A stretch of 64,000 nt of DNA from Desulfobacterales bacterium (GCA_046483495.1 JAWODC010000026.1:10838-74837); one strand, 5' to 3'; positions 17,150-64,000 are shown, numbered from the stretch's first letter. Translations and numbers: made by a program. Notes: generated by a model not told the origin, from the letters alone.

Positions 17150-17172
17150 GGAAACCTCCTCATGCTGTTTTT

Positions 17173-20311: not shown

Positions 20312-20340
20312 GCCTCTTTTCCCTTCCTCGAAATGATGCT

Positions 20341-26845: not shown

Positions 26846-27216
26846 GGCTGCTCCTTTATGTCTAAAGCATTTTTATAAAATTCCAAGGGGTTTGAAAATA
26901 CGGGTCAACCCCTATTTTCTTTCAAAATGGAATGCAAAAGAAAACGGGGCAAATGCGATCTGCAAACGGCATGTCACGAGGCGGAAAAATGCAGGATATA
27001 CCGGTGATTTTCTCGATCATTTACCTGAAAACCCTCCTTTTTTGGATACCTGTTGAATGATATGAAAAAGGTTGTCATCGTGTGCCGGCATTTAGAGAAA
27101 CGATACTCGGGCTGTAAATGAAACGGCTGATTGCCGGAAAATTGCGAATCTGCTCAGGCGGCGAACGTTATTGATTGCCTGTTCAACGAATCGGCCGTTT
27201 ATTTATAGGAGATGAA

Positions 27217-35353: not shown

Positions 35354-36358
35354 ATGAAATCGGTCATCAGGCAGGACAAAGCATTGAACCGATGGGTTAT
35401 TTTTTCTACATTGCGTGGAAAAAGACCACACGAGTTCAAGAAGAAAACGAAACGGGCCAAATCGCTTCCCGAATATGACCTCCATTGCCCGTTCTGCCCG
35501 GGAAATGAGCACATGCTCGATGAAATCCTGCTTCAGGATGCCGGAGACAATTCCTATGGGTGGCAGACGCGGGTCGTGCCCAATAAATATCCCGCGCTTC
35601 TGCCGGAAGGGAATACGCATCGAAGGGAAGAGGGGATTTATCTGTCGATGGACGGATACGGCAGGCACGAGGTGATTATCGAAAGCCCCGGCCACCGCAG
35701 GCAAATTGCACTGCTTCCTCCGGAGGCCGTTCGAAAGGTCATCGAGGTTTACCATCGCCGGTACGTGCAGCTGATGGAAACGAATGAAAACAGCTTCGTG
35801 GTCATATTCCGGAATCATGGGCCCGGTGCGGGAACTTCCCTGATACATCCCCACTCACAGATTATCGCGACGGGTATCGTTCCGGGATATGTCCGGTTCA
35901 GGGAGGATCAGGCACAGCGGTATTATGATACGTGGGGCCGCTGCGTGTACTGCGAGATGCTGGCTTTCGAGGCGCAGGAGGGCACACGTGTTCTCGAGGA
36001 AAACGATACGTTTCTCGCCTTTATTCCGTTTGCGGCGGAGGTCCCCTTTGAGATATGGATCTTGCCGAAGTGTCACCAGGCCGATTTCGGGACGATTACG
36101 GAAACGGAAAAAGACCGGCTTGCCGAAATGATGGGTCGTCTTTTGAAGAATGTATATGAAAAGCTGAATGACCCGGACTACAATTATATCATCAGAACGG
36201 CGCCGCGATACAAATCCGGTGAACCGCATCTGCACTGGTTCCTGCAGATCAGGCCGCGTCTCACTATGCAGGCCGGATTCGAGATCGGATCCGGCATCAG
36301 CATCAACCCCTCCCTTCCGGAGCAGGATGCGGAATATCTGAGAAGTGCATCGGCTTAG
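35354..36358 (+). CDS. galT: GalT-family nucleotidyltransferase
   Basis: CPFCPGNE, VVPNKYPAL, HPHSQ catalytic motif. Confidence 0.88.
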   Translation: MKSVIRQDKALNRWVIFSTLRGKRPHEFKKKTKRAKSLPEYDLHCPFCPGNEHMLDEILLQDAGDNSYGWQTRVVPNKYPALLPEGNTHRREEGIYLSMDGYGRHEVIIESPGHRRQIALLPPEAVRKVIEVYHRRYVQLMETNENSFVVIFRNHGPGAGTSLIHPHSQIIATGIVPGYVRFREDQAQRYYDTWGRCVYCEMLAFEAQEGTRVLEENDTFLAFIPFAAEVPFEIWILPKCHQADFGTITETEKDRLAEMMGRLLKNVYEKLNDPDYNYIIRTAPRYKSGEPHLHWFLQIRPRLTMQAGFEIGSGISINPSLPEQDAEYLRSASA

Positions 36359-36419
36359 ATGACGCATATGCAGGATCAGATTCACCGGACGCCTCGGACC
36401 CGTCATTAAGGAGATTACT

Positions 36420-37658
36420 ATGATCGGATGTACAAAAATGGTCGGGCTGGAAGATTACGAGCCCCTTATCGGTGCCGAAACGATGGACCGCATCTTTCAA
36501 AAGGCCGAACCCCTGAAGGATCTTCATATCGCCAATGTCAATTCGACGTACTATGGCGGAGGGGTGGCCGAACTCTTAGGATCGCTGACGGTCCTGATGA
36601 ATACCATCGGCATTAAAACCGGGTGGCGCGTCTTGCAGGGATCTCCGGATTTTTTCAGCATTACAAAAAAGATGCACAACGCCCTGCATGGGTACGATAT
36701 CAATCTCAGCGACCATAAAATGCAGAATTTTGAAGACGTCGTCTGCCAGAATGCGATCCGTAACCATTTAAACCATGATGTCGTCATCATCCATGATCCG
36801 CAGCCGCTCCCCATGATCATGCATTACCGCAAATACGGCCCTTGGATCTGGCGATGCCATGTCGACCTGACTTCACCGAACCGCGAGGTGTGGAACTACC
36901 TCGAACCGTTTATCGAGAAATACGATGCGGTGATCGTGAGTATAAAAGAATATGCTCAGAACCTGAAAACACCGCAGTTTTTCTTCATGCCGGCCATTGA
37001 CCCTTTTTCCATAACCAACCGCGACTTCAGCGAAGAGGAAATCCAGGAACGGCTGGATCATTACGGCATACCCACGGACCTGCCGCTGGTGGTGCAGGTT
37101 TCCCGGTTCGATCGGTGGAAAGATCCGAGAGGGGTGGTGGAGGCCTTTCAGATCGCCCGGCGGGAAGTGGACGCAACGCTGGTCCTGCTGGGCAATGTAG
37201 CCACCGATGATCCGGAGGGAAAAGAAGTCTATGAGTCCCTTTTGAACTGCCAGGAAGAACGCATACGGATCATGAGCGTCCAGGATACCGCCCTGGTCAA
37301 TGCCCTCCAGCGCAAAGCCGCCGTGGTTCTTCAAAAATCGATCCGGGAGGGGTTCGGCCTCACGGTCGCGGAGGCGATGTTCAAGGAAGCCGCGGTAATC
37401 GGAGGCAACACCGGCGGCATCCGGTATCAGATTGCCGACGGCGTGAACGGATTTTTGGTCAACTCGGTGGATGAGGCGGCAAACCGGATTGTCCGGCTTT
37501 TAAAAGATGAACCGCTTCGGAAGGAAATGGGGCGCCTGGCGCGGCAAACCGTTATCGAAAAGTTCCTCCTGACGCGCTACCTGGAGCAGTACCTGGATTT
37601 GTTCGGCTCATTCGAAACCATCTACCGCATCAGCAGCCCCTTGAATATGCAAATCTAA
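36420..37658 (+). CDS. treT: Trehalose glycosyltransferring synthase TreT (GT4)
   Basis: NSTYYGGGVAELL, TKKMHNALHG, IHDPQP, WRCHVD, QVSRFDRWKDP, EGFGLTVAE. Confidence 0.85.
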   Translation: MIGCTKMVGLEDYEPLIGAETMDRIFQKAEPLKDLHIANVNSTYYGGGVAELLGSLTVLMNTIGIKTGWRVLQGSPDFFSITKKMHNALHGYDINLSDHKMQNFEDVVCQNAIRNHLNHDVVIIHDPQPLPMIMHYRKYGPWIWRCHVDLTSPNREVWNYLEPFIEKYDAVIVSIKEYAQNLKTPQFFFMPAIDPFSITNRDFSEEEIQERLDHYGIPTDLPLVVQVSRFDRWKDPRGVVEAFQIARREVDATLVLLGNVATDDPEGKEVYESLLNCQEERIRIMSVQDTALVNALQRKAAVVLQKSIREGFGLTVAEAMFKEAAVIGGNTGGIRYQIADGVNGFLVNSVDEAANRIVRLLKDEPLRKEMGRLARQTVIEKFLLTRYLEQYLDLFGSFETIYRISSPLNMQI

Positions 37659-44477: not shown

Positions 44478-44625
44478 GAAGTGGTTTCAAAACCTCCCCT
44501 CAGGTCCAAGATCAAGGCGGGAGGAAGGAAGGATTCAAGCGCAGGAATACATAACGTATTTTGAGCATTGTATCCTTCCCCCCAACGCCGATATTGGACC
44601 TGAGGGGAGGTTTTGAAACCACTTC
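44478..44625. mobile_element. 148-bp MITE-like palindromic element with 32-bp perfect terminal inverted repeats, flanked by TA
   Basis: GAAGTGGTTTCAAAACCTCCCCTCAGGTCCAA at both ends in inverted orientation; TA at 44476-77 and 44626-27. Confidence 0.8.
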
Positions 44626-46094
44626 TACAGCCAATAATCGAATGCCAGGGCGAATCGCTCCAGAAACAGGTTTAACAGCGGACGGATTTTCCATTCTTCG
44701 AGAACAACCGCTTCTGATTGGGCGAGGTCCTCCTGAAACATGTCTTCCATTTTTTCAGCGAAATCACTGTCGAGAATGACGGCGTTTGCTTCGGCATCAT
44801 GGAGAAAACTGCGCGAGTCCAGGTTGCTCGAACCCACGGTTGACCAGACGCCGTCGATAACGGCGGTTTTGGAATGCAGGAGAGCTCCCTGGCGCTCGTA
44901 GAGTTTAATGCCGGCTTTCAAGAGTGACGTGTACTTGGCTCTGCCGGCATACACCGGCATCCAGAAGTCGCTGACGCCCGGGACAATGATTTTTACATCC
45001 ACTCCCCGTTGAACCGCGGCCGAAAGCGCCTCTATCAACTTGTGGTCCGGTATGAAGTAGGCCTGGGTGATGTAAATGTATTCTTCGGCATGAAAAATCG
45101 CCGACATGTAGGTTGCGTAGATGTTCGGAATTTTCTGTTCGGGCGTTCCGGCAATGACGCGGACGAGCGTATCCCCCTTCTTTTCGAGGGCGGGAAAATA
45201 ATGCGACAGGCTCCTTTCCATAGTACCGTGGCGCTGCCACATATCCAGAAAAAGCTTCTGAAATTCGGCAACAGCCGGTCCTTCCACCTGGACCTGGGTA
45301 TCCCGCCAGTAATAAACGGGTTTTCCTTTCTTTTTGATCACCGCTGATGGGCTCTTCTCATAGACGCGGTAGAAATTGATTCCCCCGGTAAAGGCGATTT
45401 TCCCGTCTACAATCAAGATTTTCCGGTGGTCCCGGTTGTTGAACGTCCATTTCCCGCATAGACCCCAGATGCTCAAGGGATTGAATTCGAATAGCTCGAT
45501 GCCGCCGGCCCGCAGGCGTTCGAAGAATGCTTCAGGAGTTCTTCGGGAACCATAACCGTCGTAAATCATTTTTACCCGTACCCCCTCGAAGCATTTCTTC
45601 AACAGCAGGTCCGCAAGCGGACGCCCAACGCTGTCATCCCGAATGATAAACGTCTCCAAATGGATATGATCCCGGGCATCTCGGATGGCTTTTTTCATTG
45701 CGGCCAGGGTTTCCGGGCCATCGCGCAGCAGTCTGACCTCGTTGCCCCGAATCAAAGGCTTTCCGGAAATCGCTTCCACCAGCTTTATGTGCCGGTCGAG
45801 AATACGCCTGTCCCCCGCATCATTTCCGAGGTCATCGATTATTGCTTGGATTTTCGGATTGAAGCATACCGCATGTTCATCATTTATGCGCGGATACGGG
45901 TGTGGTGAATGTGGAAAAGACAGGTAGTCAAGATCGGGAAGGCGAGCGCATGCGGATAGGGCGGCAACTGAAAAGCACACCAGAAGTACGGCGAGAAAAT
46001 GTGCTTTTCGGTTTCCGCTCCCGTATAGATTCCGTGCAGTGATAAAACGGCCTCGCTTATTGAATGATAGAGAAGCTTCCCAATGCGGTGACAT
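44625..46094 (-). CDS. cls: Cardiolipin synthase (PLD superfamily, ClsB-like; start uncertain)
   Basis: Two HKD motifs: HRKILIVDG and HSKTAVIDG..STVGSSNLD. Confidence 0.9.
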   Translation of the reverse strand: MSPHWEASLSFNKRGRFITARNLYGSGNRKAHFLAVLLVCFSVAALSACARLPDLDYLSFPHSPHPYPRINDEHAVCFNPKIQAIIDDLGNDAGDRRILDRHIKLVEAISGKPLIRGNEVRLLRDGPETLAAMKKAIRDARDHIHLETFIIRDDSVGRPLADLLLKKCFEGVRVKMIYDGYGSRRTPEAFFERLRAGGIELFEFNPLSIWGLCGKWTFNNRDHRKILIVDGKIAFTGGINFYRVYEKSPSAVIKKKGKPVYYWRDTQVQVEGPAVAEFQKLFLDMWQRHGTMERSLSHYFPALEKKGDTLVRVIAGTPEQKIPNIYATYMSAIFHAEEYIYITQAYFIPDHKLIEALSAAVQRGVDVKIIVPGVSDFWMPVYAGRAKYTSLLKAGIKLYERQGALLHSKTAVIDGVWSTVGSSNLDSRSFLHDAEANAVILDSDFAEKMEDMFQEDLAQSEAVVLEEWKIRPLLNLFLERFALAFDYWL

Positions 46095-50404: not shown

Positions 50405-53400
50405 ATGAACAGAAAAATGGTAACCATCGACGGCAATGAAGCCGCAGCATATGTCGCCCATAGAACCAACGAAGTCATCGCCATATATCCGATTACGCCC
50501 TCTTCCCCGATGGGGGAATGGGCCGACGAGTGGTCGGCCAGGGGATATAAGAATATCTGGGGCACCTTGCCGCATGTGTATGAAATGCAGAGCGAGGCCG
50601 GAGCGGCCGGGGCTCTTCACGGTGCGCTGCAGGCCGGGGCGCTTGCCACGACGTTTACCGCGTCCCAAGGGCTTTTATTGATGATCCCCAACATGTTCAA
50701 GATAGCCGGAGAGCTCACTGCGACCGTTTTTCATGTTACAGCCAGGACAATCGCCACCCACGGCCTCTCCATATTCGGAGACCACAGTGATGTGATGGCC
50801 GCCCGTTCGACCGGATGCGCCATGCTGGCCGCCGATTCCGTGCAGGAGGCTATGGATTTTGCGTTGATCGCCCAGTCCGCCACGCTGCGGTCCCGCGTGC
50901 CGTTCATTCATTTTTTCGACGGCTTCCGGACGTCCCACGAAGTTGCAAAGGTGGAGCAGCTCACGTTGGACGATATGAGAGCCATGATCGATGACAACCT
51001 CGTTGCGGCGCACCGGGAAAGGGCACTGACGCCGGATCGGCCCGTCATTCGCGGAACGGCGATAAACCCGGACGTGTTTTTTCAGGGCAGGGAGGCATCG
51101 AATCCATTTTATCAGGCATGTCCGGAAATCGTAGAGAAGACGATGGACCGCTTTTATGATCTCGTGGGAAGGCGGTATGCACTTTATCAATATGTCGGGG
51201 CTCCGGATGCCGATCGGGTCCTGGTGATCATGGGGTCGGCCGCGGAGACCGTCATGGAAACCGTCGGAGTTTTAAACGAACAGGGGGAAAAGGTGGGATT
51301 GGTCAAGGTGCGGCTGTATCGCCCTTTTTCCGGGAAGCACTTTTTAGAGGCGCTGCCGAAAACGGTAAAAGCGATTGCCTGCCTCGACCGCACCAAAGAG
51401 CCCGGTTCGGCGGGAGAGCCGCTTTACCAGGATGTGCTTACCATGATCAGTGAAGGTTTCTCCGATGGATCCGTCGGGTTCGCGGCATTTCCCCGAGTGG
51501 TCGGGGGGCGCTACGGACTTTCCTCCAAGGAATTCACACCCGCAATGGTCAAAGGTGTTTTTGACGAATTGAAGCAATCAAAACCCAAAAATCATTTCAC
51601 TGTCGGCATCGACGATGATATCACCCATACGAGCATCGACTACGATCCCTTCTTTACCGCAGAAAAAGGCGAGGTGATTCGGGCCATGTTCTACGGCCTT
51701 GGCGCGGACGGGACGGTCGGTGCGAACAAGAACTCCATTAAAATCATCGGCGAGGGAACCCCCAACTTCGCCCAGGGATATTTTGTCTATGACTCGAAAA
51801 AATCGGGTTCGCAAACGGTTTCCCATCTTCGCTTCGGCCCGACGCCGATTCATGCCGAATACCTTGTACACAAAGCGAACTTCATCGCTTGCCATCAGCC
51901 GTTTTTTCTCGAAAAACCCGGTATTTTGGCCGGTGCGGCAGAAGGCGCCGTCTTTCTGCTCAATTCTCCTATCGGCCCGGAAAACATCTGGGACTACGTA
52001 CCGGCGGAAAGCCAACGGCACCTGATCGACAAAAAGATGGCCTTCTATGTTATCGATGCGTATAAAGTCGCCGGCGAGGCCGGGCTGGGGGGAAGGATCA
52101 ACACGGTGATGCAAACGTGCTTTTTCGCGATTTCAGGTGTTCTGCCGAAGGAAGCGGCCATCGAGGCGATCAAAGACGCCATTCGAAAGACTTACGGAAA
52201 ACGGGGCGAACACATTGTTCGGATTAATTTCGAGGCCGTCGACAAGACGCTTGCCAACCTTCATCGGGTCACCATCCCGGAAACGGTCCGGGAAGGGGGC
52301 GAAAGCCGCCCGGTGGTGCCGGAGGAGGCGCCCGAATTCGTCAGAAAGGTGACCGCGGTGATGATGGAAGGAAAAGGGGACGAACTGCCGGTAAGCGCCA
52401 TGCCGGTGGACGGTACGTTTCCGACCGGCACGACCCGATGGGAAAAACGGAACGTTGCGCTGGAAATTCCCATCTGGGACAAGGAGGTGTGCATCCAGTG
52501 CGGCAAATGCTCTTTGTATTGCCCCCATGCGACCATTCGAATGAAGGCTTACCATGAAGACCATCTCCGGAATGCGCCGGAATCATTTCAATGGACCCCT
52601 GCCCGGGGCCGGGATTTTCCCGAGGGCACGCTCTTTACGGTCCAGGTTGCGCCGGAAGACTGCACCGGGTGCGGCGTATGCGTCAATGTATGCCCCGCCA
52701 AAAACAAGAAGGAACTGGGCAAAAAGGCCATTAACATGCACGCCAAAATCCCGGTTTTGGAGCGGGAGAAGGCCAATTATGAACATTTTCTCCGGATTCC
52801 CGATTATGATCGTGATGCGCTTAAGATCCACACGGTTAAAGGATCCCAATTGTTGAAACCCCTCTTTGAATACTCCGGCGCCTGTGCCGGGTGCGGCGAA
52901 ACGCCGTATATTAAGCTGTTGACGCAGCTTCTCGGCGATCGGCTTTTGATTTCGAATGCAACGGGCTGTTCATCCATATACGGCGGGAATCTCCCGACTA
53001 CGCCGTATACGACGAATGCCGAAGGGCGGGGGCCGGCATGGTCGAATTCGTTGTTCGAAGATTGCGCGGAATTCGGATTGGGCATGCGGATGGCCGTCGA
53101 CAAAAACACCGAATTCGCCCGTGAACTGTTAAAGGAAAGTGCCGGACGTCTGGGTGAATCCCGAGTCGACAGTATTCTAAAAGCGGACCAGGAAACCGAA
53201 AGCGGCATTGCTGCTCAACGGCGGCGCATCAACGAACTCAAACAAATTCTCGCCGCCGATTCGGACCCGAAATCCGAACTGCTTCTCACACTCTCGGATT
53301 ACCTGGTGAAGAAAAGCGTCTGGTGCGTCGGGGGGGACGGATGGGCATACGACATCGGGTTCGGCGGACTGGACCATGTCATCTCTTCGGGGAAAAACAT

Positions 53401-53983
53401 CAATCTTCTCGTTCTGGACACCGAGGTTTATTCGAACACAGGCGGCCAAATGTCCAAGGCCACCCCGCGGGCCGCAGTGGCCAAATTCGCCGCCGGCGGA
53501 AAGCATACCCCTAAAAAAGATCTCGGCATGATGATGATGACTTACCGAAACGTTTATGTAGCACAGGTGGCGATCGGCGCCGATGACGCCCATACGGTCC
53601 GCACCTTCGTCGAGGCGGCGGCATACGACGGACCATCACTGATCATTGCTTACAGTCACTGCATTGCCCACGGCGCCCATATCCCACAGGCATTCACTCA
53701 TCAAAAGGCGGCGGCGCAAAGCGGCTACTGGGTGCTTTTCCGCTTCAACCCGGACCGGATAAAGGAAGGCCGAAACCCGCTTCAACTCGACAGCAAGGAG
53801 CCTTCCATCTCGGTTATGGATTTCGCCTATCAAGAAACCCGCTACAAGATGCTTTCATTGAGCCGACCTGAAGAAGCTCGAAAACTGATCGGGCTTTTAG
53901 ACGAAGACGCAAAAAACAGGTATCGAATTCTTCAGCAGATGGCTGCCATGGAATTCGACGGGACCACCCGGGCGGGTATGTGA
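50405..53983 (+). CDS. nifJ: Pyruvate:ferredoxin (flavodoxin) oxidoreductase, single-chain type
   Basis: YPITPSS, GLGADGTVGANK, two 4Fe-4S motifs, SGACAGCGE, GGDGWAYDIG. Confidence 0.96.
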   Translation: MNRKMVTIDGNEAAAYVAHRTNEVIAIYPITPSSPMGEWADEWSARGYKNIWGTLPHVYEMQSEAGAAGALHGALQAGALATTFTASQGLLLMIPNMFKIAGELTATVFHVTARTIATHGLSIFGDHSDVMAARSTGCAMLAADSVQEAMDFALIAQSATLRSRVPFIHFFDGFRTSHEVAKVEQLTLDDMRAMIDDNLVAAHRERALTPDRPVIRGTAINPDVFFQGREASNPFYQACPEIVEKTMDRFYDLVGRRYALYQYVGAPDADRVLVIMGSAAETVMETVGVLNEQGEKVGLVKVRLYRPFSGKHFLEALPKTVKAIACLDRTKEPGSAGEPLYQDVLTMISEGFSDGSVGFAAFPRVVGGRYGLSSKEFTPAMVKGVFDELKQSKPKNHFTVGIDDDITHTSIDYDPFFTAEKGEVIRAMFYGLGADGTVGANKNSIKIIGEGTPNFAQGYFVYDSKKSGSQTVSHLRFGPTPIHAEYLVHKANFIACHQPFFLEKPGILAGAAEGAVFLLNSPIGPENIWDYVPAESQRHLIDKKMAFYVIDAYKVAGEAGLGGRINTVMQTCFFAISGVLPKEAAIEAIKDAIRKTYGKRGEHIVRINFEAVDKTLANLHRVTIPETVREGGESRPVVPEEAPEFVRKVTAVMMEGKGDELPVSAMPVDGTFPTGTTRWEKRNVALEIPIWDKEVCIQCGKCSLYCPHATIRMKAYHEDHLRNAPESFQWTPARGRDFPEGTLFTVQVAPEDCTGCGVCVNVCPAKNKKELGKKAINMHAKIPVLEREKANYEHFLRIPDYDRDALKIHTVKGSQLLKPLFEYSGACAGCGETPYIKLLTQLLGDRLLISNATGCSSIYGGNLPTTPYTTNAEGRGPAWSNSLFEDCAEFGLGMRMAVDKNTEFARELLKESAGRLGESRVDSILKADQETESGIAAQRRRINELKQILAADSDPKSELLLTLSDYLVKKSVWCVGGDGWAYDIGFGGLDHVISSGKNINLLVLDTEVYSNTGGQMSKATPRAAVAKFAAGGKHTPKKDLGMMMMTYRNVYVAQVAIGADDAHTVRTFVEAAAYDGPSLIIAYSHCIAHGAHIPQAFTHQKAAAQSGYWVLFRFNPDRIKEGRNPLQLDSKEPSISVMDFAYQETRYKMLSLSRPEEARKLIGLLDEDAKNRYRILQQMAAMEFDGTTRAGM

Positions 53984-54023
53984 GGTGACGGGCGTTCTCA
54001 ACCGCTAACCCAAGGAGAACCAA

Positions 54024-55034
54024 ATGGATCTGACCACCGAGTACATGGGATTAAAACTGAAGTGCCCTTTGGCGGCCTCGGCATCGCCGCTTTCCAGGGA
54101 CGTGGATAACATCAAACGATTGGAAGATGCAGGGGCCTCCGCCATTGTACTGTACTCGCTTTTTGAAGAACAGATTATCCACGAGCAGAAGGAACTGGAT
54201 TATTACCTGTCACGGGGGGCTGAACACTTTGCCGAAGCATTGACCTACTATCCGAATATGGAGGATTACAACCTCGAGCCCGATATGTATTTAGAGCACA
54301 TTCGAAAGGCAAAAGAAGCTGTTGACATCCCCATTATCGGAAGCCTGAACGGTGTTTCCGACTCCGGCTGGTCCGCATATGCATCGCATATCGAACAAGC
54401 CGGGGCGGATGCCGTGGAATTGAATATCTATTATGTTGCCGCCGATGATTCTCTCTCTGCAGAGGCGGTGGAATCGCTGTATCTGGGCAACCTTGCGACG
54501 GTCAAAGAGGCGGTCGGCATTCCTGTCGCCGTGAAGGTCGGGCCTTTTTTCAGCGCCATGGCACGTATGGCGAAGCGGCTGGACAGTGCAGGTGCGGATG
54601 CGTTGGTTCTTTTCAACCGATTCTATCAGCCGGATATCAACCTCGAGACGCTTGAAACCGAACCGAGTATTTTACTGAGCAGGGAAGGCGAGTACCGGCT
54701 TCCTTTGCGATGGATCGCCGTACTCTACGGCCGTATCGGCGCCGATCTGGCGGCGAGTTCAGGCATCCACAACGGGTATGACGCCGCAAAAATGATTATG
54801 GCCGGCGCCGATGTGTTGATGCTGTGCTCCACGCTGCTGAAGAACGGGATTGATTGGCTGACGCGGATAAAAGAGCAGCTGCGGGAATGGGCCCATCACC
54901 AGGAGTATGCATCGATCGGTGAAATGAGAGGGAGCATGAGCCACAGGAACACGCCGAACCCGTCGGCCTTCGAACGCGCAAATTACATGCGCGCACTGAC
55001 CGAATTTTCTGTGGCGAGTGCGGCTAAATGGTAG
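54024..55034 (+). CDS. Dihydroorotate-dehydrogenase-like FMN protein
   Basis: YMGLKLKCPL, SLFEEQI, ELNIY, PVAVK, FNRFYQPD; catalytic SCP motif absent. Confidence 0.85.
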   Translation: MDLTTEYMGLKLKCPLAASASPLSRDVDNIKRLEDAGASAIVLYSLFEEQIIHEQKELDYYLSRGAEHFAEALTYYPNMEDYNLEPDMYLEHIRKAKEAVDIPIIGSLNGVSDSGWSAYASHIEQAGADAVELNIYYVAADDSLSAEAVESLYLGNLATVKEAVGIPVAVKVGPFFSAMARMAKRLDSAGADALVLFNRFYQPDINLETLETEPSILLSREGEYRLPLRWIAVLYGRIGADLAASSGIHNGYDAAKMIMAGADVLMLCSTLLKNGIDWLTRIKEQLREWAHHQEYASIGEMRGSMSHRNTPNPSAFERANYMRALTEFSVASAAKW

Positions 55035-55130: not shown

Positions 55131-55742
55131 CTATTGCAGACTCGCGGCAGGCGCCGGCCTCGTTTGGGGCGGGAACTGCGCGAGCGTTTTTGCCACCAGT
55201 TCACTGATTTCTTCGGTCTTGGTTTCCGGACCCCAATGCTCCTCAACGCGATGCGTGCCCTTGCCCCGCCAGATGATTTCGTTGGATATCGGATCGATGA
55301 TGTCGATGTAAAGCACGCCTTGCTGCCGGGTATATACATCCCTTCCGGCTCCGATCCCGATCCCCCCGAATAGGCCGCTTCCCCACCAGGTTCCGAATCC
55401 CACTTCCGTGCCGAGCCCTTCGGACTCCAGGACCGGACGAATGTGATACCGATAATCGACATAAAAGTCCGGCCGGGTGCCCACGGCCTTCCGGTACCCT
55501 TGAGCGGCAAGCGTATAGTCAACGGCGGTTTGAATGCGCTCGGAGACCAGCGGATCTTCAGGGGCCCTGTCGATCGTTTTCCCGCCCGCTTCGGGATGCC
55601 ATCGAAAGGTTGCAAGGCCCGCAAAATTCGCCTCCGGCCGATAATCCTGGCTGACGCGGACCGTCGAACAGGCGGAGAAGGCGATCATCAAGTAAACGAT
55701 TATGAACCAAAAGTATCTGGGCATTCCTATAGCCTCATTCAA
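55131..55742 (-). CDS. DUF4136 lipoprotein
   Basis: FSAC lipobox, G.LYIDIID...IWRG, FPP C-terminus. Confidence 0.82.
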   Translation of the reverse strand: MNEAIGMPRYFWFIIVYLMIAFSACSTVRVSQDYRPEANFAGLATFRWHPEAGGKTIDRAPEDPLVSERIQTAVDYTLAAQGYRKAVGTRPDFYVDYRYHIRPVLESEGLGTEVGFGTWWGSGLFGGIGIGAGRDVYTRQQGVLYIDIIDPISNEIIWRGKGTHRVEEHWGPETKTEEISELVAKTLAQFPPQTRPAPAASLQ

Positions 55743-55999: not shown

Positions 56000-56911
56000 T
56001 CAGGTCGAAAAGATAATCAGTATGAAAACACCGGCCATGTAGAAGATAGAGAAAAAAAACAGTTTCCGAGCGGAATGCCGGTCTTTTCGATACCACAGTG
56101 CAACCAGATGACGAAAAAAATTGAGCCCCAAGAGAGTTGTCCCGATGAGGAAGAAAAGCCCCAGATCCGCTTGTACACCCAAGAAGGCGGTGGCCGGAAT
56201 CAGTCCAAGCGTGTACGCTGTGATATGCACCCGTGTCGCCGCCTCTCCGGAGATCACCGGCAGCATGGGAATCCCGGCATGGGCGTATTCCTCTTTGATG
56301 GAAAGTGCCAGCGACCAGAAGTGGGGAGGTGTCCATAAAAAAATGACAAGCGCCATGAGAAAAGGAATGATGCCCAATTCACCTGCTCCTGCGGACCATC
56401 CGATCAACGGAGCAGCGGCACCGGAAGCGCCGCCGAATACGATGTTCATGGCAGTTCTGCGCTTGAGCCATATCGTATAGACGATGACATATATGAATAT
56501 CGCTCCGATTCCCAGCAGCACCGTTAACCCGTTTCCTGCACAATAAAGCAGGGCCGTCGCCGATCCGGAAAAAATAAAACCCACGTAAACGGCGGTTTTT
56601 GGGTTGATTTTGCCGGCCGGAATCGGCCGCCTGTTTCGGGTGCGCGGCATGAGGCGGTCGATGTCCCGGTCCAGATACTGGTTAAAGGCATTCGCGGCGG
56701 AGGCGGCTAAAATAATGCCGGCAAGAATTGCAGAAAACCTGCCGGGGTCGACGGCAAGCGATCCTTCGAGTGCCATGGCGCTTGCTCCGGTGACAGCGAC
56801 GAGAAGTACGATTCGGGGCTTGGCCAGCAGCAGGCAACTGTATACATGTGCCCTCAACCGCACAAGCAAACTTGCCGCAAACGTAAATCCTGAATGGATA
56901 TTCGTTTTCAT
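56000..56911 (-). CDS. cyoE: Heme o synthase (protoheme IX farnesyltransferase)
   Basis: KPRI, N..LDRDID.LM.RT..RP, LKRRT..NI..GG, WTPPHFW. Confidence 0.94.
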   Translation of the reverse strand: MKTNIHSGFTFAASLLVRLRAHVYSCLLLAKPRIVLLVAVTGASAMALEGSLAVDPGRFSAILAGIILAASAANAFNQYLDRDIDRLMPRTRNRRPIPAGKINPKTAVYVGFIFSGSATALLYCAGNGLTVLLGIGAIFIYVIVYTIWLKRRTAMNIVFGGASGAAAPLIGWSAGAGELGIIPFLMALVIFLWTPPHFWSLALSIKEEYAHAGIPMLPVISGEAATRVHITAYTLGLIPATAFLGVQADLGLFFLIGTTLLGLNFFRHLVALWYRKDRHSARKLFFFSIFYMAGVFILIIFST

Positions 56912-56969
56912 TTCTATCGTTTTCTTGTCAGGCGCGTCTCTATCAGGAAGATCGCTGATGCGTATCTTC

Positions 56970-57362
56970 TCAATTCTCGTACAAATAGGCTGCTATATTC
57001 ATCGCCTCCCGCGTCGAAACGCCGAGGTCGGGCATGGCCGTTTCGGGGGAGAATTTCAGGGGATTGCGCACCCAGGCCACCATGTTTCCGGGCGTGTTCG
57101 GAAGGACGCCCCCGATGTAGATCTGAACGCCGATATCGTTCAGCTTCGGTCCGACCCTGCCGGTTGCTTTGCGGATCCCGGGAATCACGTGGCAGGCCGT
57201 ACATCCGTAACCAATCATCGCCTGCCGGCCGAGACTCGGCAAACCGTCGCGAACGGACCAGGGTTGTCTCTCCGGCACCGGGGTGCGGTGCCACACCCAA
57301 TATACGGCGGCTGCCGCTAGGAAAATGAAACCAACCAGCAGCCAGATTGTCCGTTTCAGCAT
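56970..57362 (-). CDS. Membrane-anchored monoheme cytochrome c
   Basis: CTACH, distal AMP. Confidence 0.9.
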   Translation of the reverse strand: MLKRTIWLLVGFIFLAAAAVYWVWHRTPVPERQPWSVRDGLPSLGRQAMIGYGCTACHVIPGIRKATGRVGPKLNDIGVQIYIGGVLPNTPGNMVAWVRNPLKFSPETAMPDLGVSTREAMNIAAYLYEN

Positions 57363-57373
57363 ATCAGGCTCCC

Positions 57374-58816
57374 TTATTCACGGGGAAACGTCTGTGCAAC
57401 CAGTACGAATTCAACAACCTTTTCCAGGTCCTCTTCTGTAATGCGATCAATATAGCTCGGCATCGGGACATTCTTCGGCGGTGCAAGAACGAAATTGTAA
57501 AGCCACGACCGGGAAAGGCGCTTTTCAGTAGCCGCCAGGTCAGGTCCGACACGCCGTCCATGCGACGATACCGCGTGGCAGCTGTTGCACCCGTATACAG
57601 CGAAAAGATGCCGCCCTTTTTCGCTCATATCACTCAAAACGATGCCTTCGGGCACCGTTGGGGGCGTACTGTCCGGCCAGCCGGTCCATGGGGATTCGAT
57701 ACGCAGATCCGTGAACCACAACAACACAAACAGAAGTGAAAGGACGAAGAAGACCCAGAAGGGCCTTTTCCGTGCTCCCCGGTTCGGACTGCGGTCCAGA
57801 AACGGCAGAAGCATCATTCCCACGAACAGCAGCAATGGAAAAACCACGTAAACCACCGGTGCCGCTCGGGGCGGAAGCTGCGCGATTACGGCGCTGTACC
57901 ACCAGAACCACCATTCTTCTCGAGGCATCGACCGCGCAACCAGGTTCCCCTCGGGATACAGTTCCTGCGGGCCGACCACAAATGCCGGCAGAAAGGCGAT
58001 CGAGAAAATCACAAGGGCGGCTGCGCCCGACATCAGAACGGTTCGTGGATAGAACCACTCGCCCTCTGTCGGTGATTCACAAGCGGCCTTGTAAATCGCC
58101 TTTTGCTCGGCCGCGGTTTTGACCGGCTGTTTTTTCTCCGCACGGGATGTGATGCCGTGCAAAATCACCAGGTACAGATGAAGCCCCACCAGGCCGATCA
58201 GAAAGAGCGGCACGATCCAGACGTGAACTGAAAAAAAGCGGGTAAGGGTGACCGAACCAAGGTGCTGCCCACCCTGGACCACGTAAACGAGGGCCTCGCC
58301 GATCACGGGAACCCGGTACAACATGTTGAGTGAAACGCGCACGGCATATACGCCGCGTTCATCCCAGCGAAGGACATAACCGGTGTAGGACATGGCCAAA
58401 ACCAAAAAAAACTGGAAAACGCCGACTATCCATGTGCCCTCTCGAGGGGCTTTATAGCCGCCCAGCAGCAGGTGCCGAAAAACATGCAGCACCAGCATGA
58501 CGACCATCACGCCGGCTGTCCAATAATGGATTCCCCGGACCAGCCGGCCCAGGGACACTCCCCGTGTAATAAGCCACACACTGTCATAGGCGTGGTCGGC
58601 GGAATTGGTGTAATAAAGGAGCATGGTCATTCCCGTGATGACCTGGATGGCCAGAAGCGTCATCAGGGCCGCGCCGTCGCCGTAATACCATGGTGTCCGG
58701 GGAACGCGACGGGCAAGGACATGCCTATGGAAGGGAAAGAACCCCAAACGATGAGCCGCGATCCGCTTCAGTGAATCGCCGTTGCCTTTCAGCCGGCATA
58801 ATGCTCTTATACGCAT
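57374..58816 (-). CDS. Cytochrome b (b6+subunit IV-like) fused to C-terminal cytochrome c
   Basis: Four heme His, GYKAPRE.TW, TGYVLRWD, LLPFLDR, CNSCH...MP. Confidence 0.9.
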   Translation of the reverse strand: MRIRALCRLKGNGDSLKRIAAHRLGFFPFHRHVLARRVPRTPWYYGDGAALMTLLAIQVITGMTMLLYYTNSADHAYDSVWLITRGVSLGRLVRGIHYWTAGVMVVMLVLHVFRHLLLGGYKAPREGTWIVGVFQFFLVLAMSYTGYVLRWDERGVYAVRVSLNMLYRVPVIGEALVYVVQGGQHLGSVTLTRFFSVHVWIVPLFLIGLVGLHLYLVILHGITSRAEKKQPVKTAAEQKAIYKAACESPTEGEWFYPRTVLMSGAAALVIFSIAFLPAFVVGPQELYPEGNLVARSMPREEWWFWWYSAVIAQLPPRAAPVVYVVFPLLLFVGMMLLPFLDRSPNRGARKRPFWVFFVLSLLFVLLWFTDLRIESPWTGWPDSTPPTVPEGIVLSDMSEKGRHLFAVYGCNSCHAVSSHGRRVGPDLAATEKRLSRSWLYNFVLAPPKNVPMPSYIDRITEEDLEKVVEFVLVAQTFPRE

Positions 58817-58825
58817 AATTTTACC

Positions 58826-59383
58826 TCAGGCCATCGGCGGAACGGAATGGAGATCGATCAGGATCTCGCCGTTTTTTATGCGATTGGCATAGCGGTACAT
58901 GGGGCGATTCGGAGGGCCGGCCATCCGTTCGCCGTTTTTGTCGAAAATTCCGCCATGGCATGGACAAAAGAAGCATTGACTTCCCGGGTCGAATGTGAGG
59001 GGACAGCCGAGATCCGTGCAGCTTCTGGAATAAACGATCACTTCTTTTTCTGTGGATCGCCAGGCATACACAGCCATATCCCGCAGCGCATCTCCCCAAT
59101 GTTCTTCAGGCAGGCGCACGATTACCTTGCGCATGACGCCTACAGGGAAGGTTTCGATTCCGCCGATCGACCGCCATTTCGGCCTTTTCCCACGTTGCCG
59201 CCATAAGGGCGCCAGGCCGGCGATCAGGGAAGGTATGCCGACCATCGCGGCAACAGCCAACCCAATGCCACGGACTCCCCATACCATCAGGGTCCTTCGT
59301 TTTCCGTCGATTTCGTTTACGGCCGCCTTTTCGGAAGGACCGTTTTCGCTGATTGCGTTTTCCGAGTTCATCTGATTCAACAC
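58826..59383 (-). CDS. Rieske-type 2Fe-2S subunit with atypical box I
   Basis: Tat-like KRRTLM + TM, CTDLGC, CPCHGG.F, GPP.RP. Confidence 0.88.
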   Translation of the reverse strand: MLNQMNSENAISENGPSEKAAVNEIDGKRRTLMVWGVRGIGLAVAAMVGIPSLIAGLAPLWRQRGKRPKWRSIGGIETFPVGVMRKVIVRLPEEHWGDALRDMAVYAWRSTEKEVIVYSRSCTDLGCPLTFDPGSQCFFCPCHGGIFDKNGERMAGPPNRPMYRYANRIKNGEILIDLHSVPPMA

Positions 59384-59772
59384 CCCCCCAGATAAGCAAA
59401 GACAGGCATGCTTTCCACAATGATGATCAGCGAAAAAACCCCGCTGATCGGCCAGCCGAAGCTCGATAGGTAAATGCCGCCCGCGTCATAGAGGTTTTCA
59501 TGGGCCGCTGCCCCGTCTTTACGTGCATCCGCATATCCGATGATGGTCGCTGCAACGGCAGGGGTCAGCGATAGAATGCCCGCCCCGATTAGAAGCCATG
59601 CCACCGCGCTGATGCCGGCGATGCTGCGATCGTCGAATCCGCTGACGCAGCCGAACTCGCCGATCGCGTAGATGGCCAGGAGATGAAATGTCCAGGCAAG
59701 GGCGCCCCCGAGCAAGGCGAACCATCGGCGAAGTATCAGTCCCCGAGACGGTGGCGTATGTGCAGCAGTCAT
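59377..59772 (-). CDS. Three-helix membrane protein, putative oxidase accessory subunit
   Basis: SD GGAGG, three hydrophobic segments, embedded in the operon. Confidence 0.7.
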   Translation of the reverse strand: MTAAHTPPSRGLILRRWFALLGGALAWTFHLLAIYAIGEFGCVSGFDDRSIAGISAVAWLLIGAGILSLTPAVAATIIGYADARKDGAAAHENLYDAGGIYLSSFGWPISGVFSLIIIVESMPVFAYLGGC

Positions 59773-59784
59773 GAGCCTCCTTTT

Positions 59785-62292
59785 TTACAAAATGTAAGGC
59801 GACAGGTACGTGGTCAAATAAGAAAGAATTCCCGCCGCTACTGCGAAAAACAGGAAAATTTCAGTGTTCTGGAGCCATAAGGCCAATCGGGGCGCACCGA
59901 GGGGTTCCCCGGACGCCAGCATGCGGGCAAAAGTACCGGCCGTTATACAGGTTCCGGTCAGGGCCGTCAGCAGGACAAATCCGTTTATCGTAAAAAATAT
60001 GGATGCATAGGCATTGTCCGAATGGGAAAAGGGCGTCGATGCCAGGCTCCACCATTGGCCGGCCGCAAAACACAGTCCTGAAACGATAATGCCCGCCATG
60101 ACGTAAATGATCGGCCTGCGACGTTTTTGCCGCCGCATACGGAAAGAGATCACCTGGAGAACCCCTGCCGCAGCCAGTGCCGCGTATGCCGCCGAGGAAA
60201 TTTTAAGGTCCGGCAGCGGAAGTCCGAACTGCGGCCACTGGGCGGAATACAGCCGGAGGTAAAAATAGCTGTAGATCAAGACCGCAAGAACCGTGAACAG
60301 GATGGCCGCCATTCCCAGCATTGCCCACCATCCCACGGACCGGGAGCCCGAAGACAACAGCGGCAGTTTTAGATGTTCGGTGAGATAATCGGCTTCCCCG
60401 GGATCGATCTCCGGTTCCCGTGTCAGCCAGTATCCGATGAGAATGACGGCGAAAACAGAGGCGATGACAGCCGGCATATAGCTGTCGCCGAGAATCGAAA
60501 CGGCTGCCGTCAAAAAAGCGACAGCCGTGAGAAACGGCAGCATCGTCGGGCCGGGAAGATGCTGAACAGCCTGCGGCAGCCCGTTGGTGATATCGGTGAC
60601 GAGGTTCGCCCGCCATTTGGCGGGACGGCTGTCGAGCTTCTCCGCCGTGCGGACCAGCTCTTCTTGCAGGGTGTCGTCCGGCGCCGGCTGCCACAAGGGA
60701 TATCGGTCGCGCACCACGGGGGGGCGTATGAATCCGGAGGGGTGCGGCGGCGAGGTGATGGACCACTCGATTGTGCCGCCCTGCCAGGGATTGTCATCCG
60801 CACGCCTGCCCCTTCCTGCGCTCCAGAGAAGGCCCAACAGCGCGACGGCAAATCCGATGCCAAGCAGGTAGGCGCCGAGGGTGGAAACAAAATTCAGCGT
60901 ACCGACGTCGAGTTCTTCGGGAAAGGTGAAAACACGCCGCCGCATACCCAAAAGTCCGATAATGTACATCGGGATAAACGTTACATTGAAACCGATAAAA
61001 ATCAGCCCGAAACCGATTTTGCCGGGTATTTCTTGGGCGATTCTGCCGGTGAACTTCGGCAGCCAGTAGTAGAGGCCGGCCAAAAACGGAAAAACCGCAC
61101 CGCCGATCAACACATGGTGAAAATGGGCCACTACGAAATGTGTGTCGTGAACCTGCCAATCGAAGGGCATCGTCGCCACCATGACCCCGGTCATGCCTCC
61201 GTTGATAAAAACGAAAAAGAACCCTAAAATAAACAGCATGGGGACGGTATAGCGGGGGCGGCTTCCCCATAGCGTGGCGATCCAGGCGAAGACCTGGGTT
61301 CCGGAGGCAAGAGCGATCATGAAACTGGCCGCCGTAAAAAACAGCATGGGCAGGTCGGGCAGACCGCTAGTGAACATGTGATGGGTCCAAAGACCGAAGC
61401 TGACGAAAGCGGTGACCAGAATGGCCAGTATCACCAGTTTGTATGCCACCATGCGACGGCGCGCCAGGACGGGAATAATCGCGGAAAGGACGCCGGTCGC
61501 CGGCAGAAAAATGATGTACACTTCCGGATGGCCGAAAAACCAGAACAGATGCTGCCAGAGAAGAGAATTTCCCCCCAACCGGGGGTCGAAAAAGCGGAAC
61601 CCGAAGGTTCTTTCCATCTCAAGAAGAAGAGAGGCGATCAAAAGGGGTGTAAATGCGAAAATAATCATTACGCCGGTGGCGACATAAGCCCAGATAAACA
61701 GCGGCATGTTCTGAATGGCCATCCCCGGAGCGCGGAACTTGAAAATCGTGATCGTGATCTCGACAGCCGCCCCGATGCCGGCAATTTCGATGAGGCTTAG
61801 CCCCAACAGCCAGAAATCCAGCCCTTTTCCCGAAAAGCGCGAACCCGAAAGCGGCGTATAGGCGGTCCATCCCGCATCCGGTACGGTTCCGAAAAGCAGG
61901 CTCGAATACATTACCAGTCCGCCGAAAAGAAACAGCCAGAATCCGAAATTCGTGAGGCGGGGATAAGCGACGTCACGGGACCCGATCAGAAGCGGAATCA
62001 TGTATAAACCAAGACCCTCGATGAACGGTACGGCAAACAGGTAAAGCATTGTCGATCCGTGCATCGTAAATACACGGTTGTAGACGCCGGGAGTGAGCAT
62101 GTGGTTTTCCGGTACGGCCAACTGCGTACGCATGACCAGTGCGAGCACCACGCCGACAAGGAAAAACGCCAGGGAGGCCGCCATGTAACGGATGCCGAGC
62201 GGCCGGTTGTTGACGTCGGAAATCCAGCCGATAAGACCTTTCGGCGATTCCCAGGTCCGGGTAAACAACAGGTGACGTTCAGAATGGTTCAT
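59785..62292 (-). CDS. ctaD: A-family heme-copper oxidase subunit I fused to a subunit III-like domain
   Basis: FTMHG, FGHPEVY, WTHHM, VAHFH, GMRRR; C-terminal SYFYLR..WP and NAYASIF; ATG overlaps the upstream TGA (ATGA). Confidence 0.92.
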   Translation of the reverse strand: MNHSERHLLFTRTWESPKGLIGWISDVNNRPLGIRYMAASLAFFLVGVVLALVMRTQLAVPENHMLTPGVYNRVFTMHGSTMLYLFAVPFIEGLGLYMIPLLIGSRDVAYPRLTNFGFWLFLFGGLVMYSSLLFGTVPDAGWTAYTPLSGSRFSGKGLDFWLLGLSLIEIAGIGAAVEITITIFKFRAPGMAIQNMPLFIWAYVATGVMIIFAFTPLLIASLLLEMERTFGFRFFDPRLGGNSLLWQHLFWFFGHPEVYIIFLPATGVLSAIIPVLARRRMVAYKLVILAILVTAFVSFGLWTHHMFTSGLPDLPMLFFTAASFMIALASGTQVFAWIATLWGSRPRYTVPMLFILGFFFVFINGGMTGVMVATMPFDWQVHDTHFVVAHFHHVLIGGAVFPFLAGLYYWLPKFTGRIAQEIPGKIGFGLIFIGFNVTFIPMYIIGLLGMRRRVFTFPEELDVGTLNFVSTLGAYLLGIGFAVALLGLLWSAGRGRRADDNPWQGGTIEWSITSPPHPSGFIRPPVVRDRYPLWQPAPDDTLQEELVRTAEKLDSRPAKWRANLVTDITNGLPQAVQHLPGPTMLPFLTAVAFLTAAVSILGDSYMPAVIASVFAVILIGYWLTREPEIDPGEADYLTEHLKLPLLSSGSRSVGWWAMLGMAAILFTVLAVLIYSYFYLRLYSAQWPQFGLPLPDLKISSAAYAALAAAGVLQVISFRMRRQKRRRPIIYVMAGIIVSGLCFAAGQWWSLASTPFSHSDNAYASIFFTINGFVLLTALTGTCITAGTFARMLASGEPLGAPRLALWLQNTEIFLFFAVAAGILSYLTTYLSPYIL

Positions 62293-63326
62293 TTCAGGCT
62301 CCACAGGTATGCCGTAAGCGCATGGAGATCCTCGGGCGGCAAATACGATTTCGGCATCAGGTTCTCCGGTTTGATATCCTGTGGATTGGCGATCCAGCCG
62401 GCCAGTGATCCCGGTGTATTGACAATGGTGCCGGCGCCGAGCGTTTTTCGTGATCCCACGTGGGTCAGGTCGGGACCGGTGCTGCTTTCGGATAAGCCCC
62501 TGATTGCATGGCATGCCATACATCCCTCCTGAATGAATGCGCGTTCTCCCCGCACCAGACGCGGGTCCGCCGGGGCAGCCGGCGGACGGCGGCGGTCATC
62601 GACCCATCTTTCGAAATCCTCCGGATCATGGGCGATCAGACGAAAAGCCATCAGGGCATGCGGTCCGGCGCAGTATTCGGTGCAGGTGCCGCGATAATTC
62701 CCGGCTTCATCGGCCTGGAGTTTGATCGATGTCGGATGATCCGGCAGCATGTCCCGCTTTCCGCCGAGCCGCGGAACCCAGAAACTGTGAACCACAGCGT
62801 CGGAAACGAGTTCGAACGTCGTCAGGACACCTACCGGAATATGGATCTCGTTGGCATCGACGATGTTATACTGGGGATAATGCACCTCGAACCACCAGTG
62901 GTGACTGGTGACGTTTACCTGGAGTCCCGGCGATCCTTTGCCGAGTATTATCGTGTCGTGCACCGTGAGGGCGAGCATGACCACGAGCACAACGGTAGGT
63001 ATGGCGATTCCGGCAATAAAAACGAACCGCGGGCCCGGAAGACGGCCGTTTTTTCGGTGAATTACAAGTGCGGCAGCGAGCAGCCCCAGTGCAATAATAT
63101 AGATGGAGCCGTATACAACCAGCATTTCCCACCAGAGATCGGCGATCCGTGATGCTGCCGGACCTGCCGGATAGAGCATGGATTCCGATGCCTCGGCGGG
63201 CCTGGTCCTGATCATTCGATTAAAAAGCGCCGTTAAAAGAAGCAGTGATACAGCAATCCAGCCCGGCCGGCGCTTCGGTTTTTTCATCGATCGATCTGCT
63301 CCTGTAGACGGGGCATTCCTTTGCAT
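62289..63326 (-). CDS. coxB: Cytochrome c oxidase subunit II with CuA and fused cytochrome c
   Basis: VHSFWVP, CTEYCAGPHALM, CMACH. Confidence 0.93.
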   Translation of the reverse strand: MQRNAPSTGADRSMKKPKRRPGWIAVSLLLLTALFNRMIRTRPAEASESMLYPAGPAASRIADLWWEMLVVYGSIYIIALGLLAAALVIHRKNGRLPGPRFVFIAGIAIPTVVLVVMLALTVHDTIILGKGSPGLQVNVTSHHWWFEVHYPQYNIVDANEIHIPVGVLTTFELVSDAVVHSFWVPRLGGKRDMLPDHPTSIKLQADEAGNYRGTCTEYCAGPHALMAFRLIAHDPEDFERWVDDRRRPPAAPADPRLVRGERAFIQEGCMACHAIRGLSESSTGPDLTHVGSRKTLGAGTIVNTPGSLAGWIANPQDIKPENLMPKSYLPPEDLHALTAYLWSLK

Positions 63327-63665: not shown

Positions 63666-64000
63666 TTATAGGGGAGGTTCGGCCGGAACGGCATGAAGAA
63701 TAGGTGAGTCGGCGGGCAGGCAAAAAAGAAGCTTTTGCTTATGGAGTTTAAATCGAAATTCTTTTCCGTTGACGGGCTCTCCATCGATGTTCAGATGGAT
63801 GGGTTCACGAGTCGACAGGTCCAGCCACGGGAGTTGTGCATACTGGATATCACCGGGGTTTTCAGACCGGCTCATATGATAGTAATCCGAAATCAGAGAG
63901 AGCAGCCCTTTGTCGGATTCGGGCATGATCATCAGATCGAGCAGACCGTCCGTGATCACCGCTCGGGGTGAAACGGAAAATCCGCCGCCCGCTCTTCTCC
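63666..64000 (-). CDS. C-terminal part of a YegS/diacylglycerol-kinase family lipid kinase (partial)
   Basis: GRRAGGGF...TDGLLDL...LNIDGEP. Confidence 0.8.
   Translation of the reverse strand, partial: RRAGGGFSVSPRAVITDGLLDLMIMPESDKGLLSLISDYYHMSRSENPGDIQYAQLPWLDLSTREPIHLNIDGEPVNGKEFRFKLHKQKLLFCLPADSPILHAVPAEPPL

Follow-up and report, generated by a model that had tools for sequence, protein, structure and literature searches.

A Desulfobacterales operon joining a Rieske/cytochrome b-c complex and a caa3-like oxidase with replaced near-invariant residues

Which of the residues regarded as invariant in respiratory complexes truly matter? A natural test of this question is offered by an operon on the minus strand at positions 56000-63326 of a 64,000-nucleotide stretch of DNA from a Desulfobacterales bacterium (GCA_046483495.1 JAWODC010000026.1:10838-74837), the whole of which is called the window here. 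Rieske clusters are defined by their ligation through two histidines, and mutagenesis has led to the view that the Qo motif, the Qi acid and the K-channel lysine are near-essential; in this one module, natural selection has fixed replacements of the Rieske His and of all three others. Judged by its genes, the operon would work like a bc complex joined to a caa3 oxidase while lacking residues by which both families are defined. Our leading reading, to which we give an even chance, is that the Rieske/b-c complex and the caa3-like oxidase may form a laterally spread, weakly coupled menaquinol:O2 sink in an anaerobe. The ligand question is cheap to test on the small soluble Rieske domain, the oxidase would test A-type turnover and pumping without a K-channel, and the system is relevant to how sulfate reducers cope with oxygen.

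Replaced residues in seven intact genes

The operon consists of the following genes, given in the order of transcription:

62289-63326, minus strand: CoxII with the CuA site and a C-terminal cytochrome c (CMACH); COX2 and cytochrome c families of Pfam/NCBIfam
59785-62292, minus strand: CoxI+III fusion, A1-type with GHPEVY; COX1 family, 835 amino acids
59377-59772, minus strand: protein with three transmembrane helices (3-TM protein), directly after CoxI+III; no Pfam or NCBIfam family
58826-59371, minus strand: Rieske protein with a twin-arginine N-terminus, CTDLGC and CPCHGG; Rieske family, database call of 181 amino acids from 59371
57374-58816, minus strand: long cytochrome b fused to a class I cytochrome c; seven transmembrane helices, b6-like His spacing, no CxGG
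56970-57362, minus strand: membrane-anchored monoheme cytochrome c (CTACH) with a SoxX-like cytochrome c match; present in 13 of 44 related loci
56000-56911, minus strand: heme o synthase CtaB/CyoE (TIGR01473, above cut-off); present in 7 of 44 related loci

All seven co-oriented open reading frames (ORFs) are open and neighbours abut or overlap, so that the ORFs together with Pfam and NCBIfam bear out the seven co-oriented, mostly abutting genes and the families named in a first-pass annotation of this DNA. The start of CoxI is most likely the ATG at 62292, which overlaps the coxII stop and gives 835 amino acids, the length of database protein P0277; a 912-residue ORF from 62523 is merely the longest frame and not the favoured start. 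In CoxI, 12 helices are predicted ahead of a COX3-like part, and CoxII possibly starts at a later ATG (63287, 63215 or 63179). A promoter scan stayed at chance level, with 4 found versus 5.3 expected.

CoxII, cytochrome b and the small cytochrome each carry a single CxxCH site, which makes three in the operon, in agreement with the three c-type hemes proposed earlier. The operon retains all four b-heme His, the His and Tyr of the CoxI heme/CuB site and the ligands of CuA, and the altered residues that the same annotation had reported (CTDLGC, EEWW and K362Q) are present as CTDLGC...CPCHGG in the Rieske protein, PREEWWFWWY in cytochrome b and ALASGTQVFAW in CoxI. Wherever dS was finite, the ratio of nonsynonymous to synonymous substitution rates (dN/dS) fell within 0.06-0.44 in every gene; five comparisons with locus L040 were saturated. 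All seven genes are intact and under purifying selection, and the odd residues are neither error nor decay.

In the Rieske protein, Asp120 (its codon starts at 59014) replaces the box I His of CxHxGC and aligns with the first His of solved Rieske proteins; box II CPCHGG follows. Asp occupies this position in 120/120 of the homologues listed (120 of 244 matches, the window's own protein included), and GGxF, typical of low-potential, menaquinol-oxidising Rieske proteins, follows box II in all of them. Codon usage at the site is split evenly (GAC 22, GAT 22). A 43-row alignment shows no variation in the three remaining ligands, the disulfide Cys pair or GPP, and hardly any in the twin Arg; dN/dS was 0.09-0.28 where finite, as low as in the partner genes. 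Of the two features expected of a bc complex, a Tat-anchored (twin-arginine translocation) Rieske gene adjoining a four-heme-His cytochrome b is present, and the 2Cys-2His ligation (CxHxxC...CxCH) is absent. The extra Cys of SQCFFC was rejected as a substitute for the box I His, as it is not invariant. We take the box II His to correspond to yeast His181, and because of this correspondence the quinol-contacting His would be retained in the Asp-Rieske protein. Yeast His181 is described as the residue in contact with quinol (PMC8361435; articles given by PMC or bioRxiv number are cited here for individual passages).

To place these proteins, the best 150 Rieske representatives at 50% clustering were classified by box I, giving 18 with Asp, 130 with His and 2 without a readable box. 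In a tree of 90 rows (quick search without bootstrap; fragments and rows lacking both boxes excluded), 35 Asp rows and one His row formed a single long-stem clade with a Shimodaira-Hasegawa-like approximate likelihood ratio test (SH-aLRT) support of 99. The His row is P0129 (CTHLSC), possibly a reversion or an error.

The cytochrome b of the window carries E300-E-W-W as its Qo motif, S263 in place of the Qi Asp and D47 next to the heme bH glycine. Among the 35 rows covering the Qo site, 33 read EEWW and 2 EEWY (five more rows are truncated), and neither form matches a described type (PEWY, PDWY, APWY, PDWF, PPWF, GPWF). We compared 32 rows of this clade with 12 sister operons that have a His-Rieske protein (a 13th intended sister locus, L086, failed the extraction pattern and was not included). 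The first Qo position is changed from P to E in 32/32 clade rows, and Asp47 directly precedes the heme bH glycine in 32/32, where the sisters have F, L or S. At the Qi acid column of the alignment, which we take to be equivalent to yeast D229, the clade shows S in 14, T in 14 and I in 4 rows (0/32 Asp) and the sisters D in 10 and S in 2. This column aligns with K-E of the Aquifex cytochrome b, and EEWW with PEWY, at weak E-values. None of the 32 clade rows has lost any of the four b-heme His. The loss of the Qi Asp together with the gain of Asp47 appears from these alignments to be a new finding for this cytochrome b clade. The split cytochrome b and the heme ci CxGG of b6f/b6c complexes are missing, as the protein is fused and YCLGG aligns to YGDGA; the C-terminal class I cytochrome c that marks the PEWY/PDWY-cytochrome c clade is present.

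For CoxI, residues are given in what we take to be R. sphaeroides numbering, and mycobacterial and Bacillus structures as well as canonical records served to check the columns. The window protein retains D132, E286, Y288 and the His ligands and carries the changes K362Q (Q333), T359S, N121L, N139T and N207E (E178) as well as the added E92 and E169. Counted over the best 120 of 8000 scored matches, D132, Y288 and six His are invariant (120/120), E286 is E in 119 and D in 1, and R481/R482 and W172 are conserved. Lys362 occurs in 0/120 (Q 117, L 3), T359 is kept in 3/120, N121, N139 and N207 are each Asn in 0/120, and E92, E169 and E178 are each present in 120/120. Their helix positions suggest that these three glutamates line the D-channel. 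In CoxII of the window, the K-channel entry Glu was not seen in helix 2, and 25/26 rows have no E/D within the aligned helix 2 window, the alignment being approximate. The hallmarks of A1-type enzymes are therefore divided: His ligands, cross-linking Tyr, GHPEVY Glu, D132 and CuA are found, the K-channel and the D-channel asparagines N121/N139/N207 are not. As a side observation, the residue after heme ligand H421 (residue 393; 60785-61150) is His in the window and not Tyr (Y 74, H 38, D 8 of 120); this His marks a Desulfobacterota-type branch.

Residues that change together and relatives of the oxidase

For the analysis of gene order and co-occurrence, 44 loci were fetched via the Rieske protein: nine came from genomes through a protein search, 35 from metagenomes through a DNA pattern for CTD. 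The set contains a few duplicates, and the 35 metagenome loci are not independent evidence for the Asp because they were fetched by the CTD pattern. Rieske and cytochrome b genes lie together in 40/44 loci, the other four being cut by contig ends, and all five core genes are present in 18/44, most commonly in the order Rieske > cytb-c > coxII-c > coxI+III > 3-TM. A caa3-CtaG gene follows the core genes in 8/16 loci compared. The gene order of the window is shared with Desulfobacterales/Desulfobulbaceae records, and CoxI reads S..Q in 24/24 covering rows of the Rieske-fetched loci. In one locus (L018), the oxidase genes (3061-7017) and ctaB-Rieske-cytb-cytc (7048-10302) are on opposite strands and converge; the two halves of the operon behave like separable cassettes there.

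In a set of 25 loci chosen by cytochrome b similarity alone, EEWW and CTD occurred together in 11, of which 6 were already in the Rieske-fetched set and 5 were new. The other 14 have a His-Rieske protein and no EEW; 13 of them show P[ED]W[YF] and one was unread. The oxidase follows a different pattern. Among 14 plasmid COX1 records, 7 of the published 'COX operon type a' carry K362Q, 1 has Ala and 6 have Lys, and the 7 K362Q enzymes share E169 (7/7), E92 (6/7) and E178 (6/7) with the operon, although no Rieske or cytochrome b gene is annotated within 3-4 kb of them. In a CoxI tree of 28 rows (quick search without bootstrap), the 14 operon rows form one clade (99) inside a 21-row Gln clade (99), and this K-less oxidase clade is widespread in aerobic proteobacteria. 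Conversely, His-Rieske/PDWY operons of the same architecture have a Lys oxidase in 6/6 cases with an adjoining oxidase.

On this comparison, the K-less oxidase is either older than the Asp-Rieske/EEWW pair or separate from it. Only the Asp-Rieske and EEWW change together, because the K-less oxidase occurs without them and the sisters carry a Lys oxidase. K362Q was accordingly rejected as diagnostic of the operon, being common to type a oxidases. The expectation that all three alterations co-occur holds for CTD with EEWW in 11/25 unbiased loci and fails for K-to-Q, which is also found in operons without Rieske and cytochrome b genes; likewise, co-evolved function in place of decay stands in the form of a conserved functional module, but not for all three components, the CoxI changes being older or separate. 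The architecture, first presented as non-canonical, is not new but shared with the sister operons that have His-Rieske, PDWY and Lys362. As to the origin, the oxidase may have been swapped in, or the type a operons may have lost their Rieske/b genes.

The 3-TM protein leads to the same relatives. A profile built from three sequences matches small ORFs after type a ctaD with E-values of 8e-7 to 7e-4. The protein has no Pfam/NCBIfam family and only hypothetical clusters as Atlas matches, and its structural model, three helices with a predicted local distance difference test score (pLDDT) of 84, matches generic bundles only (best Z 9.7). It is likely an accessory oxidase subunit, perhaps comparable to subunit IV (CtaF/CyoD/QoxD).

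Three further observations concern the type a relatives. The operons of Peteryoungia and S. meliloti contain a cation:proton or sodium:calcium antiporter gene (L063 9049-10040; L066 2874-3947), which deserves attention given the added glutamates. A plasmid COX1 of Methylocella tundrae (L073 2920-4872), sister to the Gln clade, has GHPWVY and Ala at K362 and lacks both E286 and Lys. The type a COX1 proteins of Paraburkholderia (L064 3914-6511) and Rhizobium N1341 (L071 2950-4863) are without D132 and read S-I-A-F-P and N-I-A-F-P.

The module is patchily distributed. No close copy turned up among 40 relatives (0/40, best 34% identity), nor among 400 further genomes from the phylum of the host, where the best match (35%) was of the His type. 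It is present in 7/301 genomes of the order of a Desulfobulbaceae metagenome-assembled genome (MAG) and in 4/401 of the phylum of a Planctomycetales MAG, with further carriers in Verrucomicrobiales; the Asp-Rieske clade thus spans several phyla. Database names of CoxI carriers include the cultured Desulfopila inferna and Geoalkalibacter halelectricus. In the host, the GC content of the operon (56%) exceeds that of the genome (51%), and its tetranucleotide distance ranks at the 95th percentile of 284 windows, which is compatible with lateral gain and no proof of it.

Electron path, coupling and competing explanations

The host genome is 96.7% complete and has a single COX1-family and a single Rieske match, both of them those of the operon. 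It contains dsrA above cut-off, DsrD, menB and two cytochrome c assembly genes; dsrA and DsrD bear out the anaerobe hallmarks noted at first pass, and the host is likely a sulfate reducer. In this genome, no match was obtained for bd oxidase, CtaA, SCO and caa3-CtaG, nor for the futalosine gene family PF02621, menB being found instead. Since CtaA, SCO and caa3-CtaG were not found in the host, the description of the operon as self-contained was overstated. Separately, 48 menB/crotonase profile matches, one of them above cut-off, amount to a large enoyl-CoA hydratase set, which suggests fatty-acid or aromatic degradation.

We infer cluster ligation, electron path, heme type, coupling and role along the following lines. 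Menaquinol would be oxidised at the rebuilt Qo site (EEWW), and the electron would pass to a [2Fe-2S] cluster held by two Cys, one His and one Asp, probably of lower potential than in a normal Rieske protein. From there it would reach the heme c on cytochrome b, then the anchored cytochrome c and/or the CoxII heme c, and CuA; the low-spin heme would hand it on to heme o3/CuB, where O2 would be reduced. Since CtaB was found and CtaA was not, heme o or b is the likely choice. Chemical protons would be taken up via the D-channel with its three extra glutamates, K362, T359 and the subunit II entry Glu being gone. By analogy, little or no pumping is expected because N139T and N207E lie at positions where laboratory mutations uncouple pumping; N139D and N207D do so yet keep turnover (PMC7196763). 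The absence of the Qi Asp points to a Q-cycle that is weakened or altered. Such a chain would still separate charge, with protons released outside and taken up inside, and would be energetically bd-like. In a more specific and tentative version, a 2Cys-1His-1Asp bc-type complex with a dropped or rewired Q-cycle (the Qo motif being new and the Qi carboxylate lost or moved) would be combined with an A-type oxidase drawing every proton through one D-channel with five carboxylates, so that each coupling site of the III-IV chain would be retuned.

Several points weigh against a weakly coupled sink serving an anaerobe. The Q-cycle may well operate through a relocated carboxylate, because the b-heme His are kept and Asp47, which adjoins heme bH, is invariant (both 32/32), and the Qi position is Ser in 2/12 His-Rieske sisters too. 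The channel changes may not be additive, because the uncoupling papers describe Asp substitutions in a canonical channel and the D132N/N139D double mutant restores pumping (PMC7196763). K-channel loss usually cripples O2 turnover, T316K leaving 15% of wild type (PMC7196763), and in the Sulfolobus Rieske protein (ARF) a change of the box I His to Cys prevents cluster assembly (PMC2946596). Planctomycete and verrucomicrobial MAG carriers hold several further COX1-family genes and 4/5 other carriers tested have bd oxidases; the module is therefore accessory in them, and scavenging O2 on behalf of an anaerobe can be only part of its role. Conservation of flanking genes was rejected as well, since beyond CtaG and one unannotated ORF the neighbours differ between loci (53/103 candidate ORFs scanned).

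The explanation that survives best beside the weakly coupled sink, although we consider it unlikely, is a fully coupled III-IV chain in which the Asp tunes the cluster to the quinol of the host, Asp47 replaces the Qi Asp and the D-channel, lined with glutamates, delivers every proton and still pumps. It would account for the conservation of the four b-heme His, D132, E286, R481/R482 and W172 and for new carboxylates as invariant as catalytic residues (E92, E169 and E178 in 120/120, D47 in 32/32), and it accords with the spread of the K-less clade in aerobic proteobacteria and with the ability of second-site changes to restore pumping (PMC7196763). It has to explain why N139 and N207, known uncoupling positions, are both altered, why the Qi acid is missing in 32/32 and why the module is accessory and patchy.

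Decidedly less probable is an Asp-Rieske protein without a normal [2Fe-2S] cluster, being cluster-free or binding another metal and serving a structural role, with quinol electrons reaching heme c otherwise, e.g. through heme bL. The cluster-free ARF variant (PMC2946596), the ligand-less Rieske proteins retained in Acidocella (PMC10715153) and the joint change of Qo motif and Rieske ligand speak for such a protein. However, the change affects one ligand only and in every case yields a residue able to bind metal. GPP, the Tat motif and the three remaining ligands show little or no variation, dN/dS is as low as in the partners, and P0129 within the clade has His at box I.

The chance is slimmer still that the oxidase mainly uses H2O2 or NO and the operon encodes a quinol-driven detoxifying peroxidase or reductase. 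The K-channel serves reductive steps that precede O2 binding, K362M mutants turn over with H2O2 although O2 turnover is blocked in them, and the stress-gene context described below points the same way. The cross-linking Tyr288 and the CuB His are nevertheless kept in 120/120 as in O2 reductases, and bioRxiv 2020.03.01.968255 describes the K-less A-type enzymes of acidophilic iron oxidisers as cytochrome c oxidases. An unused operon in decay, or a sequencing error, is negligible as an explanation: the Cu chaperone and heme A synthase were not found in the host genome, but frames are open, dN/dS is far below 1, and a check for canonical motifs in close homologues, which would have pointed to error or private decay, found the same residues fixed across phyla, which refutes it.

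Genome neighbourhood and comparison with known systems

Stress- or dormancy-type genes lie in the window at 13493-22970, 27175-29787, 31743-32900, 35354-37658, 44625-46094 and 63666-63998. They comprise three Glyco_trans_1_2 glycosyltransferases with epimerases, LigD, an APP1-type phosphatase, GalT and TreT, a phospholipase D/cardiolipin-synthase-like gene and a YegS-like kinase. LigD, TreT, the phospholipase D/cardiolipin-synthase-like gene and the YegS-like kinase are linked to stress, and their presence in the same window makes the stress context proposed earlier plausible. A stress role of the operon plausibly fits these genes, though neighbours are not conserved between loci. A candidate Ku gene beside LigD (25937-26845) turned out to be BrkB/YihY. 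The ORF at 50405-53983, which we take to resemble pyruvate:ferredoxin oxidoreductase, is followed by a dihydroorotate dehydrogenase-like gene (PRK07565); this pair (50405-55034) converges on the 3' end of the operon, with a DUF4136 gene (55131-55742) in between. Other copies of the module have GH15, DUF892 and hemerythrin genes here and there beside them, which would also fit a stress role.

The cytochrome b-c fusion clade, the type a COX1-3 operons and natural K-channel loss elsewhere are already in print. The Asp-ligated Rieske protein, EEWW and their combination did not turn up in searches of the open-access literature; Dibrova 2013 and ten Brink 2013 lie outside it and may mention the clade. 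EEWW/EEWY does not occur in the main text of Kao and Hunte (PMC4122944), and EEWW/EEWY/EEWF occurs neither in two of its supplementary files nor in four supplementary files of Dibrova 2017 (PMC5600118).

Of the oxidases, the type a operons (Degli Esposti, PMC4013037; Sinorhizobium meliloti pSymB, Roseomonas and Paracoccus marcusii plasmids) have the same CoxII, CoxI(+III) and small hydrophobic ORF and often also CtaG and a cytochrome c. They differ in having no Rieske/cytochrome b gene in the stretches fetched, in keeping N139 in 3/7 and in keeping P358. Proton channels are undiscussed in the passages of that paper covered here, in which 'proton' has 0 occurrences. Thermus thermophilus caa3 (PDB 2YEV) and the A1-type aa3 oxidases share the I+III fusion, the CoxII heme c, GHPEVY, D132/E286 and the metal ligands; canonical A1 enzymes keep K362/T359 and the D-channel asparagines, which are replaced in the operon CoxI, and heme o/b is likelier here than heme a. 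A-type oxidases of acidophilic Fe2+ oxidisers, too, naturally lack the K-channel Lys and the entry Glu in subunit II (bioRxiv 2020.03.01.968255). These are A2-type enzymes with a hydrophobic residue, e.g. Ile, for Lys and a D-channel described as conserved, whereas the operon has Gln, is A1-type and has a rewritten D-channel.

As a predicted chain, the operon resembles the actinobacterial bcc-aa3 supercomplex, which likewise leads from menaquinol to O2 through tethered c hemes and provides the best PDB matches of CoxI; the supercomplex that the first-pass annotation proposed for the operon itself is a putative one. It differs in having monoheme domains only and no diheme QcrC, and the NCBIfam scores for QcrA, QcrB, QcrC and aa3 are far below cut-off. 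The His-Rieske sister operons (Deinococcus, Fulvitalea and planctomycete relatives) share the long cytochrome b with its C-terminal heme c, the Rieske gene directly upstream, oxidase genes in the operon and the patchy spread; they also share LRWD in the cd1 region, which was therefore rejected as a special feature. The sisters combine CxHLGC, PDWY, the Qi Asp (10/12) and a Lys362 oxidase (6/6), whereas the operon clade combines CTD, EEW[WY], no Qi Asp, Asp47 and a K-less oxidase.

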